A stretch of DNA of 64,000 bases from Clostridia bacterium (lineage in GTDB: Bacteria; Bacillota; Clostridia; Oscillospirales; CAG-272), in assembly GCA_017461765.1 (NCBI GenBank), contig JAFTXO010000027.1, positions 9,659 to 73,658 of the forward strand, given 5' to 3'. Below, piece by piece: positions 1,337 to 37,469 of this stretch (its first letter is position 1; each line of letters opens with the position of its first letter). The notes under the pieces are model-generated. The model ran no database searches. It was not told the DNA's origin and saw only the letters and a list, made by a program, of their open reading frames with translations. The translations under genes and the position numbers were made by a program.

Positions 1337-1475
1337 AAACGTTGTTGAAAAAAAGATCCCGATAGATAGGGTGATGTCCTTAGCGGAGAATTTGAAAAAC
1401 ACCATCAAGTGCGAGCATCGCATTTGACTAGTCAAATGTATTTGGGCTAAGCCCAAACCCATATTACAAGCAGAA

Positions 1476-1527
1476 AGAGCAAGAGTAAAAGGATAAACTT
1501 CCTTCTATTCTTGCTCTGTTCGTTTTT
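1476..1527 (+). terminator. Rho-independent terminator-like hairpin inside the DUF1846/recG gap
   Basis: AGAGCAAGA (1476-1484) pairs with TCTTGCTCT (1509-1517). An inner AAGGA/TCCTT stem is present, followed by GTTCGTTTTT. Confidence 0.5.
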
Positions 1528-1691
1528 ATGAATGAATTGATGCTTACGCATCATGAATTGGCTTCGCCATGATTTCTCGCTTCGCTCCATGAATTGAATT
1601 GCAACCAATGTGCCGTAAGGCACAATTCATGCCGCAGGCAATTCATGAAAGCACCGCTTTCAATTCACGCAGCCGTGAGGTTGCAATTCAT
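1528..1691. repeat. Compound palindromic element E1 (word CATGAATTG / CAATTCATG, 4+4 copies with GC mini-hairpin spacers)
   Basis: Left-arm words start at 1528, 1552, 1568 and 1587. Right-arm reverse-complement words start at 1623, 1639, 1661 and 1684. Spacers are ATGC-TTAC-GCAT, GC-TTC-GC (x2), the apex GTGCC-GTAA-GGCAC, GCC-GCA-GGC and GCAGCC-GTGA-GGTTGC. Confidence 0.75.
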
Positions 1692-1748
1692 AGCGTGTTC
1701 TCCGTTAAGGATAACACGCAATTTAGTCGGGATCTTTGTATTTTTTGA

Positions 1749-3902
1749 TTACGATATCGTTTGGGCATTTAAATTGCAAAGCTCCGAGACCTTTTTTCGC
1801 AATAGCTCATGCTCAGGCTTTGAGAGGGAGCGATCGTCTTTTAGTATTTCTCTTGCACATTCAAAGGCGTTGTGCAAAAGAATATTGTCGTTACAGGATT
1901 TCGCAATATTGAACCCGAGCTCACCCGATTGCCTTATCGAGTCGCTCGATGAGAAAAAGTCACCGGGACCTCTCATTTGAAGATCCTTTTCGGCAATAGT
2001 GTAGCCGTCGTAGGTCGTGTGCATTATCTGTAAGCGCTCCATTGATTTAGGACTTCTTGCATCCGAAACGAGAACACAAAACGACTGATCCTTACCTCTG
2101 CCGACACGTCCTCTTAGCTGATGTAGCTGCGAAAGACCGAAGCGCTCTGCATTTTCAACTATCATAAGCGTAGCATTCGGTACGTTTACACCGACCTCGA
2201 TAACAGTGGTCGAAACGAGAATGTCGATCTCGCCGTTTGCAAAGTGCATCATTATTTCGTCCTTTTCCTTGCATTTCATCTTTCCGTGTAAGAACTCAAC
2301 GGTAAGGTCGGGAAAGATATTTTCTTTAAGCTCCTTGGCGTAGTCAACAGCGGCTTTAAGCGGGGGAGTGTCGTCCTTTATATCAATTATGAACGGATTA
2401 TAGTCGGGAGTGTCAAGATCGTTTTCCTTCTTTTCCTCAACACTCGGACAAACTATATATACTTGATTTTTGTTTTCAACCTGCTTTCTTATAAAGGCGT
2501 TAAGACGCGATCTGTATGATGAATCGACACTGTATGTGTTGACCTTTTTTCGACCGGGTGGCATAGTGTCGATAAGAGATATATCAAGATCTCCATAGAT
2601 CATAAGCGAAAGTGTACGAGGGATCGGTGTCGCACTCATAACGAGCACGTGCGCGCTTGCGCTTTTCTCGGCAAGCTTCGCCCTCTGCATAACTCCGAAG
2701 CGGTGCTGCTCATCTGTTATTACAAGACCGAGATTTTTGAATTCCACACCCGTCTGTATAAGAGCGTGTGTACCTATTACAAAATCGGTATCTCCGCTTT
2801 TCAGGCGGGAGAGTATCTGATTTTTTTCTTTTTTCGGCGTAGATCCCGTTAGAAGCTCGCACTTGAGACCGAGTGAATTAAACATAGGAAAAAGAGAATC
2901 ATAATGCTGAAAAGCAAGTATCTCCGTAGGTACCATAAGCGCACACTGGTATCCGTTTTTGCACGCAATATAAGCGGCAACGGCGGCACATACGGTTTTT
3001 CCGCTTCCTACATCGCCGACAATTATTCTGTTCATAGGCCTTGTGAACATGGAAAAATCTGCGTCGGAAACGGCGTTTGTCGAACACATATCGCCACATA
3101 TATCGGATATTACCTTCTTTTGAGCATCGGTCAACTCATACGGAAGCATATCAACAAGAGGAGAAGCATCACCGTCATTCATTCGCGGCGCAAGCTTTGA
3201 GCTTGATACGGTTTTCATCTGTGAAAGCGAAAGCGCGAAAATAAAAAGCTCGTCAAAGGTAAGACGCTTTATGGCAGCGTGTAATGCTTCGTCACTTTCG
3301 GGAAAGTGTATGTTTTCAAGAGCAAAGGGAAGAGCACATAAATGATATTTGTATCGGATATCTGAGGGGATGTATTCTTTAATAAGAGTGGATATGCAAG
3401 GACGTATCTGAGAAACGAGCTTTGATATATATTTCTGAGTTACTCCTTGAAAAAGAGGATATATAGAAACAAAAGGCGGAAGCTCCTCCTCGCGTACACA
3501 AGGCTCGTAAGACGGTGAATTCAGCGACAGGGTGCGCTTTTCCTTTACGATCCTGCCCCAAAATCTGAATGTTGCGCCCGTTCTGAATACATCCTTTAAA
3601 TAGTTTTGATTGAAATAAGTAACGGTAATGCTTCCGCTATCGTCAAAGGCGCGAAATTTTAAAATATTCATACCTCTGCGTATCATAGCCACCTTCGGCT
3701 CGGAAGCGACCGTCAAAACGTAAGAGTGAGGCATATTATCAAACACAGGGGTGTCTATTTTATATACATCCTTGCGGTTTTGGTAGGCTCTCGGAAAATA
3801 ATAGAGCAGATCGTTTACCGTAAATATTCCGTTTTTATTAAAATATTGCTCGTACTTAGGGCCTACTCCGTATAGCTCGCCTATCGGTGTATCAAGTGTC
3901 AT
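1749..3902 (-). CDS. recG: ATP-dependent DNA helicase RecG
   Basis: 717 aa. The N-terminal wedge region (MTLDTPIGELYGVGPKY...), Walker A GDVGSGKT, DEQHRFG and the QLHQLRGRVGRG motif are typical of RecG. Confidence 0.93.
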   Translation of the reverse strand: MTLDTPIGELYGVGPKYEQYFNKNGIFTVNDLLYYFPRAYQNRKDVYKIDTPVFDNMPHSYVLTVASEPKVAMIRRGMNILKFRAFDDSGSITVTYFNQNYLKDVFRTGATFRFWGRIVKEKRTLSLNSPSYEPCVREEELPPFVSIYPLFQGVTQKYISKLVSQIRPCISTLIKEYIPSDIRYKYHLCALPFALENIHFPESDEALHAAIKRLTFDELFIFALSLSQMKTVSSSKLAPRMNDGDASPLVDMLPYELTDAQKKVISDICGDMCSTNAVSDADFSMFTRPMNRIIVGDVGSGKTVCAAVAAYIACKNGYQCALMVPTEILAFQHYDSLFPMFNSLGLKCELLTGSTPKKEKNQILSRLKSGDTDFVIGTHALIQTGVEFKNLGLVITDEQHRFGVMQRAKLAEKSASAHVLVMSATPIPRTLSLMIYGDLDISLIDTMPPGRKKVNTYSVDSSYRSRLNAFIRKQVENKNQVYIVCPSVEEKKENDLDTPDYNPFIIDIKDDTPPLKAAVDYAKELKENIFPDLTVEFLHGKMKCKEKDEIMMHFANGEIDILVSTTVIEVGVNVPNATLMIVENAERFGLSQLHQLRGRVGRGKDQSFCVLVSDARSPKSMERLQIMHTTYDGYTIAEKDLQMRGPGDFFSSSDSIRQSGELGFNIAKSCNDNILLHNAFECAREILKDDRSLSKPEHELLRKKVSELCNLNAQTIS

Positions 3903-35903: not shown

Positions 35904-35979
35904 TGGGATATAGCCAAGCGGTAAGGCACCAGACTTTGACTCTGGCATCTCGGTGGTTCGAACCCACCTATCCCAGCCA
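35904..35979 (+). tRNA. tRNA-Gln (anticodon UUG), CCA encoded
   Basis: The acceptor stem TGGGATA pairs with TATCCCA. The anticodon stem CCAGA pairs with TCTGG, with loop CTTTGAC (TTG at 35936-35938). T-arm is GGTGGTTCGAACCCACC and the 3' end is GCCA. Confidence 0.93.
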
Positions 35980-36020: not shown

Positions 36021-36215
36021 AATGATGTTTGCCTTCGGCAAATGATGTTGGCTTCGCCAATGATGACGGCTACGCCTAATAATGCATGGCTACGCCACAT
36101 TTTATGGCAAACATCGCATCATTGCGGCACGAAGTGACGCAACATCATATTTGCAAAACAAATGCATCATATCGCCGTAAGGCGATGCATCATTGAAGAT
36201 ATACAAGGCTTCGCC
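36021..36215. repeat. Compound palindromic element E2 (word AATGATG / CATCAT(T), 4+4 copies with GC mini-hairpin spacers)
   Basis: Left-arm words are at 36021, 36041 and 36059, plus a degenerate copy at 36079. Right-arm words are at 36117, 36143, 36165 and 36188. Spacers are TGCC-TTC-GGCA, GGC-TTC-GCC, GGC-TAC-GCC (x2), CAC-GAA-GTG, CGCC-GTAA-GGCG and GGC-TTC-GCC. Confidence 0.75.
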
Positions 36216-36244
36216 TTGATTTATTGGCGGAAGTGTGGTATATA
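36216..36244 (+). promoter_or_regulatory. Sigma-A promoter directly abutting E2
   Basis: TTGATT (36216-36221), 17-nt spacer, TATATA (36239-36244), preceded by TGG. Confidence 0.5.
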
Positions 36245-36268
36245 AACAAGAGATTGGAGGTGACGGTA

Positions 36269-36802
36269 TTGAAACGCGAAGAAGCCTTTTATTATATGAA
36301 TTTGTTGTTATTGGGCTTTTCTGATGGCTATGATGATTGGTTGAATTATTATTTAGAAACAGAATCTCCATTGAGTGATATTGTATTAGAACTTTCTCTG
36401 TGCGGCTCGGATGTAAACAAAACCGTATCCCTGTTACACAATTACTGTACGGAACAAGAATTTGACAAGTCTGTTTCTCATGACAAATTGCGACTGTTTT
36501 TCAAAGACGCCTATCATTCAAATAGGATGAGCAAAGAAAAAGTACTATCTACTATGTACCGTCTGTCCTTGAATGTTGGTGATCCAGGAGATTTTGATAT
36601 TAAATTATGGGGTAGCATGTACTATCTCGATTATTACTACGGCTTGGCTTTAGATGGCGTAATCCCGATGGAAAATTTTGATTTTGCTTTTTTCTCATAC
36701 CTTGATAATGGAACGCCGCTCGATTCAGATCTTATTTTGAGAAAAAACATTAAAAAGAAACCGTCATTCCTTGATAAAATTAAAAGCTTTTTTAAAAGAT
36801 AA
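36269..36802 (+). CDS. Hypothetical protein (all-alpha looking, immunity-protein-like small cassette gene)
   Basis: 177 aa when started at TTG 36269, 8 nt after GGAGGTGA (the track ORF starts at 36224). No family recognised. Confidence 0.55.
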   Translation: MKREEAFYYMNLLLLGFSDGYDDWLNYYLETESPLSDIVLELSLCGSDVNKTVSLLHNYCTEQEFDKSVSHDKLRLFFKDAYHSNRMSKEKVLSTMYRLSLNVGDPGDFDIKLWGSMYYLDYYYGLALDGVIPMENFDFAFFSYLDNGTPLDSDLILRKNIKKKPSFLDKIKSFFKR

Positions 36803-36902: not shown

Positions 36903-36915
36903 GTTTATCAGTTAT

Positions 36916-37110
36916 ATTCGCCTTATGGCGAGTTCTATTGCTTTGCAGTGATATTACTTCGTAGTGATATTGCCTTCGGCAGTTGAAAGTAACAGGGCGA
37001 ATATAATATCACTGTGAGCGATGCGAACAATATCACTATGCGTAGCATAATATCACTTCAACGCAGTTGAAATATCACTTAATCGATGCTATACTTATTA
37101 TGAGGTGATA
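36916..37110 (+). repeat. Compound palindromic element E3 (word GTGATATT / AATATCAC, 4+4) including promoter and RBS
   Basis: Left-arm words are GTTATATT, GTTCTATT and GTGATATT (x2). There are four right-arm AATATCAC words. The 3' end carries TTGAAA (37067-37072), 17-nt spacer, TATACT (37090-37095) and GAGGTGA (37102-37108). Confidence 0.8.
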
Positions 37111-37113
37111 ACA

Positions 37114-37469
37114 ATGTCAAATAGCATTTTAAGAGATAAATCAAAGGATTTTGCAAAGCAAATTGTCATTCTTTGCAAAAACATAAAAGCCAATTTAAGG
37201 AATCAGTTTTAACTAATCAGCTTTTGCGTTCCGGCACAAGCATTGGTGCTAATATACACGAAGCTCAATACGCACAAGGCAAGAAGGATTTTATATCAAA
37301 GCTTGAAATTGCACAAAAGGAATGCTACGAAACCGAATATTGGCTTGAGCTTTTATTTGAAACAGGCTATATGTCAGAATCGGAATACAAGCCTATTCAA
37401 AATGAATGTGGTGCTATTCGCAGAATGTTAATTTCATCTATAAATACCACTAAAGCCAATTTGGAGTAA
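37114..37469 (+). pseudogene. Four-helix-bundle protein (23S rRNA intervening-sequence protein family), frameshifted
   Basis: The N-terminal part MSNSILRDKSKDFAKQIVILCKNIK is in one frame (stop at 37210-37212). The rest, SQFKESVLTNQLLRSGTSIGANIHEAQ...ETEYWLELL, is in another frame. The junction is the A4 run at 37185-37188. Confidence 0.7.

Follow-up and report, generated by a model that had tools for sequence, protein, structure and literature searches.

Miniature inverted-repeat transposable elements (MITEs) that duplicate a TA, such as the Correia elements and those derived from IS630/Tc1, are short, non-coding and dispersed in intergenic DNA, carry terminal inverted repeats and fold strongly as RNA. 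Other mobile DNA is directed to stem-loops: IS1397 and ISKpn1 insert into the loops of repetitive extragenic palindromes (REPs), and class C group II introns insert after terminators. REPs, together with bacterial interspersed mosaic elements (BIMEs) and REPINs (REP doublets forming hairpins), are intergenic clusters of small hairpins in alternating orientation, often at the 3' ends of genes, whose single-stranded DNA form is thought to be the substrate; in REPs it is the palindrome that is conserved, and the RAYT enzyme recognises a short tetranucleotide beside it. Terminator-like sequences are enriched just upstream of insertion sequences (ISs) (PMC13548323). In ribosomal RNA (rRNA), intervening sequences (IVSs) put an extended stem-loop in place of a small hairpin loop (helices 9, 25 and 45) of the 23S or 16S molecule; their terminal inverted repeats form a long stem (28 bp in Coxiella), their sporadic occurrence is ascribed to horizontal transfer, and RNase III excises them (PMC4990558). 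IVSs occur with and without an open reading frame (ORF), which encodes a PF05635 'S23p' protein (PMC4990558; bioRxiv 10.1101/2024.02.27.582315), a family that resembles Avd, the accessory protein of diversity-generating retroelements (PMC10053308). Gut-1 (Rfam RF01706), finally, is a single-strand RNA motif of 77 nt from uncultured gut bacteria, of function not known (Weinberg et al. 2010, PMC2864571). Here we analyse a 64,000-nt stretch of the Clostridia contig JAFTXO010000027.1 (the window), in which the convergent genes DUF1846 and recG are separated by a structured spacer. Positions 1363-1726 of this spacer are probably an ORF-less copy of a mobile element, dispersed among gut Clostridia, that lies in the loop of the bidirectional terminator shared by the two genes; the element combines features of MITEs, of Gut-1 and of rRNA intervening sequences.

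DUF1846 (+ strand, stop codon 1334-1336) and recG (- strand, 1749-3902), both confirmed by Pfam matches, converge on a spacer of 412 nt that is found at 99.9-100% identity in three independent assemblies (L001, L002 and L451; L numbers denote sequences from other assemblies). The initial annotation had described here a bidirectional terminator with its arms forced apart, and each part of it lies exactly where that description placed it: an A7 run (1348-1354) overlaps the 5' arm AAAGATCCCGA (1352-1362), the exact complement TCGGGATCTTT (1727-1737) is 364 nt away, and GTATTTTTT (1738-1746) follows it directly. A-run, G+C-containing stem and T-run are those of a bidirectional terminator, while the 364-nt loop departs from the usual 3-8 nt or so. 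Reconstructed with a short loop, the hairpin has a folding energy of -18.2 kcal/mol. Pairing extends inward from the 11-nt arms (1363-1390 with 1698-1725, 79%), giving about 33 pairs over 39 nt, and the 401-nt stretch as a whole folds with z scores of -11.8 (+ strand) and -8.8 (- strand) relative to shuffles. A simple terminator scan of 1200-1900 called neither this split hairpin nor the internal hairpin described below. Two segments are attributed to the host:

1348 to 1362, no strand: host A-run and 5' arm AAAGATCCCGA, from the sequence and, by analogy, from the rpoC locus, whose empty site possesses the arms.
1727 to 1746, no strand: host 3' arm TCGGGATCTTT (1727-1737) and GTATTTTTT, from the sequence and from a similar sequence, TAGTCGCGTCTTTTTT, beside the recG stop in a sister species; the recG stop codon (1749-1751) comes next.

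That such arms belong to the host and the interior to an insert can be read at another terminator, between rpoC and pckA. A copy of the unit downstream of rpoC (L145) was selected because RpoC has many close relatives; in three related strains whose flanks are 94-95% identical, the site is in three different states:

L461, empty: rpoC stop, AAAC-AAAAAAGAAGACTTGC-ATAT-GTAAGTCTTCTTTTTT; pckA lies 235 nt past the rpoC stop.
L460, filled (1.5 kb): the same 5' arm, TA, a 1.5-kb element, TA, CGCAGGTCTTCTTTTTTT.
L145, filled in the opposite orientation: a 330-nt ORF-less unit whose outer hairpin abuts TA-CGCAGGTCTTCTTTTTTT, without the 5' arm.

The empty site is a plain 20-bp hairpin with the 4-nt loop ATAT (-24.6 kcal/mol). 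Compared with it, L460 is homologous across the 5' arm on the left and again from the 3' arm on the right (junctions ..GACTTGCA-TA/GGCGTG...CGCGCA/TA-CGCAGGTC.., slashes marking the element), and in L145 the left match ends at the rpoC stop codon and the right one restarts at the 3' arm. The breakpoints therefore identify the arms as host terminator and the interior as insert, and the site displays the empty/filled polymorphism of a MITE (L461 against L460 and L145). This bears out the earlier proposal of a terminator hairpin split by an insertion into its loop: for the element family such insertion is supported, the comparative evidence coming from a paralogous site. The window copy would have arisen by the same kind of event, probably at a TA in the loop.

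The unit is not confined to these loci. A word-pattern scan of species-representative genomes yielded at least 120 loci with related arrays, nearly all of them in uncultured gut or rumen Clostridia. Nine, all in other genomes, share the whole of 1367-1720 at 82-90% identity when the window spacer is compared with them by BLAST. Homology between copies ends a few bases inside the 11-nt arms, and the neighbouring genes differ at every locus (ABC transporter, EamA/radical SAM, OadA-like, PEPCK/RpoC, MATE, P-type ATPase), so that near-identical copies occupy non-orthologous sites, as those of a MITE do. Judged by these alignments the unit is discrete and dispersed, recurring in at least nine other genomes of uncultured gut or rumen Clostridia. 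Distant BLAST searches of GenBank phages and plasmids gave no match. Directly outside the 354-nt unit, five of the seven other untruncated copies (copy L182 is truncated) carry an inverted repeat specific to the locus and unrelated in sequence to the others, with a T-rich tail after the bracket in four of the five and often an A-run before it:

L212: AGGACTG / CAGTCCT, then TTTTTTT.
L152: GGGCGACC / GGTCGTCC, then TTTTTT.
L156: ATCGCTTCCCG / CGGGGAGCGAT, then TTTT.
L240: AGCAGGCACTCA / TGAGTGCCTGCT.
L145: GAAGAACTCGCG / CGCAGGTCTTC, then TTTTTTT; imperfect, with the last rpoC codons as the 5' arm.

The signature is clear only where homology sets the boundaries of the unit; a general test for long exact inverted repeats in the 220-nt flanks of all family members gave the same result as shuffled pairs. 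TA stands on both sides of the element at L460 and L212, and the loop of the empty site reads ATAT.

Within the window the spacer can be dissected as follows:

1363 to 1366, no strand: TAGA, the left leftover of the original hairpin loop; homology with the other copies begins at 1367.
1367 to 1390, no strand: left terminal inverted repeat TAGGGTGATGTCCTTAGCGGAGAA, a degenerate, truncated and inverted copy of the hairpin 1690-1722 (79% pairing; alignments).
1405 to 1457, + strand: 'left part', three small hairpins or palindromes at 1405-1427, 1421-1438 (an overlapping alternative) and 1441-1457 (fold and conservation).
1476 to 1527, + strand: internal terminator-like hairpin (stem 1476-1493 with 1500-1517) and GTTCGTTTTT (fold; conserved).
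1528 to 1723, - strand: double-array core, with extent and preferred strand from the covariance model (224 bits on the - strand, 49 bits on the + strand).
1529 to 1606, no strand: first half of the double array, ATGAATTG at 1532, 1553 and 1589 and the degenerate ATGATTTC at 1569, alternating with small hairpins.
1595-1606, no strand: array centre TGAATTGCAACC, which closes the first half.
1607 to 1691, no strand: second half of the double array, small hairpins alternating with CAATTCAT at 1623, 1639 and 1684 and CAATTCAC at 1661.
1679-1690, no strand: GGTTGCAATTCA, which pairs with 1595-1606 in a 12-bp long-range helix.
1690 to 1722, no strand: outer hairpin, the right terminal inverted repeat (arms 1690-1703 and 1709-1722, loop GTTAA), conserved in the subfamily.
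1723 to 1726, no strand: right leftover of the original loop; homology with the other copies stops at about 1720.

The layout is thus an imperfect terminal repeat of about 23 nt, whose right copy is a complete hairpin, a left part followed by the element's own + strand terminator, and a convergent double array of the form [RTGAATTG + small hairpin] x4, then [small hairpin + CAATTCAY] x4. The two perfect palindromes (CATTTGACT/AGTCAAATG at 1421-1438 and TTTGGGC-TAA-GCCCAAA at 1441-1457), the internal hairpin with its T-rich tail and the four-plus-four words (TGAATTG at 1533, 1554, 1590 and 1595, then CAATTCA at 1623, 1639, 1661 and 1684) had all been recognised before and are present as described. 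As in MITEs, the termini are inverted repeats, 1367-1390 matching 1698-1722 at 20 of 23 positions after one indel. The left-part hairpins are kept in the nine copies, compensatory changes included (e.g. GAC..GTC to GTC..GAC), and the internal hairpin (1476-1517) and its tail in all copies of the subfamily and in L460; this hairpin would halt + strand (DUF1846) transcription ahead of the arrays. The spacer had also been called non-coding, which is an inference: short - strand ORFs exist, but homologous copies differ by indels.

The 1.5-kb element of L460 has the same ends and the same order of parts as the window copy. It begins with a homologue of the outer hairpin that shows compensatory changes and continues with a GTGATATT double array, a promoter-like box, a PF05635 gene, a Peptidase_S51 gene and, at its far end, a homologue of window 1367-1527 that includes the left-part hairpins, the internal terminator and the terminal repeat. 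Since such long relatives carry the PF05635 gene between array and left part, the reading that fits the window copy best is that of a derivative with an internal deletion. The Peptidase_S51 gene (L460 6597-7181), beside the PF05635 gene, is apparent cargo.

Two further arrangements of the outer hairpin were observed. In L152 the hairpin at 759-790, compared with window 1690-1722, is flipped (reverse-complemented, with the loop inverted) in a copy that is otherwise collinear, and in L083 the array is flanked by two outer-type hairpins with identical stems and inverted loops; both look like the flip-flop of a hairpin.

Across the family, 383 of 407 spacers between words (94%) form perfect hairpins, 3 to 8 bp in length. 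Trained on 12 subfamily copies, a covariance model recovers the element at every locus and favours one strand (that of recG in the window); among 150 aligned matches 93.5% of the cells pair, compared with 78.2% in column shuffles and 30-38% with slid partners, and double changes are seen in 39 of 53 pairs. Most positions of the small hairpins show all four pair types, and the helices formed by the words are invariant. The small hairpins are, on this evidence, kept by compensatory change. The long-range helix, in which the first word and the next 2-5 nt pair with the centre (1595-1606 with 1679-1690 in the window), also covaries, is specific to the first word and is present in both other arrays of the window. 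RNAalifold additionally predicts a pure ladder of pairs between forward and reverse words; we rejected it, the words being invariant within a type and the prediction being supported by the comparison across types alone, and R/Y variants at the word ends show no convincing covariation. Words differ between copies (ATGAATTG, AATGATG, GTGATATT, GTGAAAT) and the reverse block is always the complement of the forward block; what is conserved is therefore word complementarity or a lineage-specific recognition, not one fixed sequence.

How does this compare with described elements? In Gut-1, too, small hairpins, three or four in number, alternate with a word of 7-8 nt (RUGAAAU or GUGAUAUU), and the window array has its architecture, four purine-UGA-type words with three small hairpins between them, although the word is RUGAAUUG rather than RUGAAAU. 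Its scores, 23.0 bits for 1619-1693 (- strand) and 14.7 bits for 1530-1600 (+ strand), lie below the Gut-1 gathering score of 50 bits. Rfam models gave nothing at the gathering threshold across the whole window, and a permissive search returned sub-threshold Gut-1 matches only. Read with their flanks, the published Gut-1 seeds also turn out to be forward and then reverse arrays, one of which (BAAZ01000095.1) lies within a long inverted repeat between convergent genes. By architecture and score, then, the array core is a distant relative of the Gut-1 motif, whose published description is without the double-array form, mobility, the terminator-loop position and the link to PF05635 (PMC2864571). 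If this holds, the orphan Gut-1 motif would have to be re-read as half of a mobile double array.

In its logic the closest analogue is the rRNA intervening sequence. Here, too, a small hairpin loop is replaced and the inverted termini form a long stem (with the host arms, about 39 bp), and a long form encodes a PF05635 protein. The differences are that the insert occupies an intrinsic terminator between protein genes and not an rRNA helix (the element lies between DUF1846 and recG, and no rRNA was found in the window), and that word/hairpin double arrays are absent from the IVS descriptions on which we base the comparison. To MITEs the element is linked by its short, non-coding, dispersed form, its terminal repeats and the TA flanks at L460 and L212; it differs in the lack of an identified cognate transposase, in compensatory changes where random decay would be expected, in its hairpin-loop target and in its internal arrays. 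With IS1397 and group IIC introns it shares an insertion guided by, or enriched at, a host stem-loop, a terminator being a safe niche; those elements, however, come with a transposase or reverse transcriptase of their own, the hairpin is adjoined by group IIC introns and most ISs whereas this element lies within the loop, and REP loops are repeated sequences whereas the terminators used here are each unique. Like REPs and BIMEs, the element is an intergenic cluster of small hairpins, but the relation of conserved to variable parts is inverted: the hairpin stems vary, most positions showing four pair types, and the linker word of 8 nt is invariant. A CRISPR-like locus, an integron attC site, a replication origin and a partition site were considered and set aside in view of the lack of associated genes, the dispersed copies and the variable hairpin sequences. 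A literature search on the array centre motif found nothing relevant.

Within the family the only recurrent protein partner is PF05635. In 21 of 117 arrays, 15-41 nt separate the array from a downstream gene for a 117-aa PF05635/TIGR02436 protein. Like full-length IVSs, the L460 long form has a PF05635 ORF; the window copy lacks it. The link is seen with three words, ATGAATTG, GTGATATT (window, L460) and GTGAAAT, the last in the viral contig L456, where the canonical Gut-1 word is thus also tied to PF05635. PADLOC defence-system models matched neither the PF05635 protein nor its neighbours in the window. The protein is the best candidate for a binder of the word arrays. It is conceivable, although we regard it as doubtful, that PF05635 proteins are the hallmark of mobile elements which, as a general class, invade stable hairpins at the loop, a class comprising 23S rRNA IVSs, Gut-1 and the terminator inserts, in which the arrays would be the cis site read by a pentameric four-helix-bundle protein, with one word per lineage, and ORF-less copies would be mobilised or maintained in trans. 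The uncharacterised PF05635/IVS family would gain a testable context, and an element with both empty and occupied sites, with a long and a short form and with a simple repeated motif in cis would make the origin and spread of IVSs and the role of their ORF experimentally approachable.

That insertion at DUF1846-recG was tolerated may be due to the element folding back on itself: with the host arms, its terminal repeats would form some 39 bp, so that the host stem could re-close. DUF1846 transcripts would then end at the element's own terminator, and recG transcripts would cross the arrays and end at the re-closed stem and its T-run; by analogy with rRNA intervening sequences, the long basal duplex would be a natural substrate of RNase III. 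If the insertion reading is correct, gut Clostridia and their phages would harbour a widespread family of non-coding mobile elements, so far undescribed, for which the loops of terminator hairpins are a specific landing site. Such inserts shift transcript ends and break metagenome assemblies. Many short-read contigs begin or end inside the element, frequently near the array centre (L003, L004, L131, L201, L209, L214 and L245), as is to be expected of a repeated quasi-palindrome in assembly graphs.

Several observations weigh against a mobile element in the loop. Every sequence used is a metagenome assembly. The flanks of the window copy read TA on the left and AT on the right, which is no clean TA duplication (L152 and L156 are ambiguous), and the composite copy L189 has no bracketing arms. 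Other members of the family adjoin complete hairpins instead of lying in loops (window 36021 and 36909; L083 and L247). No transposase or recombinase was consistently nearby in the genomes, which were searched non-exhaustively, and none is encoded in the long element of L460. The 64-kb window holds no second copy of the unit; the copies compared here lie in the nine other genomes. Compensatory evolution this strong would be more usual in a functional RNA than in MITE copies undergoing decay. Finally, no empty DUF1846-recG site was found among the relatives examined: in the sister species, DUF1846 is followed by its own terminator, a 3.2-kb leucine-rich repeat gene, another terminator and recG. 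The short-looped version that had been predicted thus exists at the paralogous rpoC-pckA site, with its 4-nt loop, but not at this one. As for the hairpin-targeting mobile element proposed at the outset, a discrete, dispersed unit in terminator loops is what the comparisons support; targeting of the structure and plain insertion at a TA in an AT-rich loop are both compatible with them.

Other candidates for an empty site were tried and rejected. The recG flanks of the closest relatives (RecG 89-72% identical) hold ordinary short terminators and other neighbours; among the remaining members of the RecG and DUF1846 90% clusters, L451 is the same strain with the element, and L452 and L453-455 have a different downstream region. 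More distant relatives have other cargo. A metagenome scan for the two arms around a loop of 1-25 nt returned, among the matches listed (at least 120), only unrelated organisms, and none of these matches is flanked by close relatives of DUF1846 or recG.

Two of the contigs visited in this search deserve mention in their own right. One with the 11-nt arm pair around a short loop also encodes a RecG (L343 6896-8938), only 44% identical to that of the window. In L452 (4489-4960), a DUF1846 gene with 81% DNA identity is followed by tandem repeats, each about 100 nt long and containing a near-consensus promoter (TTGACG-17-TATAAT); a scaffold gap breaks the series.

Of the other explanations, the one that survives best, unlikely as we consider it, is a structured RNA with a function for the host: a Gut-1-like small RNA or a 3' untranslated region or leader module, with the arms as closing helix and terminator and the arrays as a platform or sponge for an RNA-binding protein such as the pentameric PF05635. 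Such an RNA would show the strong covariation that is seen in the small hairpins and the long-range helix, and the strand preference of the covariance model points the same way: in 32 of 45 cases the preferred orientation agrees with the direction of the downstream gene. A strong hairpin stands beside the first word at the start of 45 of 70 copies, and in 15 of the 70 a -10 box (extended in 11) lies directly upstream of this outer hairpin, so that at least a subgroup is probably transcribed; 21 copies form the leader of a PF05635 gene, and the discoverers of Gut-1 rated it a confident RNA candidate (PMC2864571). The closing arms do not fit, however. They are unrelated between copies whose interiors are 82-90% identical, where a slowly covarying helix would look different, and at rpoC they are present without the element, at a site that carries it in both orientations. 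A simple scan also found no recognisable promoter of its own in the window copy. An RNA function and mobility are compatible, and the element may well be expressed.

In a second proposal the words are duplex DNA sites for a sequence-specific protein (an operator, a partition-like site or the subterminal repeats bound by a transposase) and the hairpins are incidental. The eightfold presence of an 8-bp word, shared out between two blocks in inverted orientation, a word of its own for each lineage, and a promoter-like TGnTATAnT between array and PF05635 gene in L456 and at window 36909-37116, which places the array upstream of a promoter, would all suit such sites, and we nonetheless rate the proposal as quite improbable. 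Duplex binding leaves it unexplained why 94% of the spacers are perfect hairpins of varied sequence with compensatory changes, and the word spacing of 16-36 bp is irregular. The loops, moreover, are strand-biased: on the CAATTCAT strand they read G..A in 193 cases and T..C in 3, the closing pair is C-G in 304 of 383, and the commonest are GAA, GCA, GTCA, GCAA and GTAA. DNA minihairpins of unusual stability are formed by C-GNA-G and C-GNNA-G; GNRA, for its part, is a tetraloop of RNA. The loop bias points to a single-stranded form, with which both DNA and RNA would be compatible. That the arm complementarity is a coincidence in ordinary intergenic DNA with unrelated hairpins is hardly credible: taken alone it is only modestly significant (exact inverted repeats of at least 11 nt with a long loop arise in 6 of 300 dinucleotide shuffles of the 412-nt spacer, 2%, and unrelated metagenomes often contain the arm pair around a short loop, with the at least 120 matches above), but the pairing reaches about 39 bp, the interior is a conserved dispersed unit, and the bracket signature recurs at five other loci, one of them with a matching empty site.

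The window contains two other double arrays and a PF05635 gene:

36021 to 36200, + strand: second double array, word AATGATG / CATCAT[TA]; Gut-1 score 20 bits.
36909 to 37116, + strand: third double array, of Gut-1 type, word GTGATATT / AATATCAC, directly upstream of the PF05635 gene.
37115 to 37469, + strand: PF05635 (23S_rRNA_IVP, four-helix-bundle) gene, seemingly frameshifted (E = 1.8e-26).

The second array starts right after the terminator of a transfer RNA gene (35904-35976) and lies upstream of an unannotated 192-aa ORF (36224-36802) that has no Pfam or NCBIfam match. Against Gut-1 the third reaches 48.8 bits with 36909-36975 (+ strand) and 42.3 bits with 37025-37116 (- strand), both just below the gathering score. 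Its PF05635 gene reads from the ATG at 37115 to a stop at 37209-37211, and the remainder is in another frame from 37173, indicating, after the N-terminal 31 codons, a frameshift or a sequencing error.

Upstream of at least eight PF05635-linked copies lies an rlmD-like methyltransferase gene whose last codons form the outer hairpin. In L138, L170, L185, L191, L208, L218 and L249, the last 10-17 codons of these rlmD/rumA-like genes (..HVESVV.L.R..) make up a long outer hairpin; in the shorter forms the stop is the TGA within the first ATGAATTG word, and in the longer ones the reading frame enters the element (..RRLDNEL*). In L140 the upstream gene encodes a large serine recombinase and not a methyltransferase, so that this may be the edge of an integrated element.

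Viral contigs, scanned for three spaced copies of the word, contained convergent double arrays in phage head-gene operons as well as two loci 78-92% identical to the window. In the IMG/VR phage contigs L027 (three copies) and L125, double arrays occupy three gaps of the head-morphogenesis operon: before the major head gene, between portal and large terminase, and upstream of the large terminase gene. We considered whether the arrays are a conserved regulatory feature of these phages and ruled this out, since they are absent in 80 relatives of an array-bearing phage (large terminase 56-69% identical). A related phage (L446 2343-2581) has three TACTCAA and then three TTGAGTA words around an AT-rich palindromic centre, without hairpins between the words, an arrangement that is probably unrelated to the double arrays. 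One phage copy of the array carries a 110-nt insert between its two halves.

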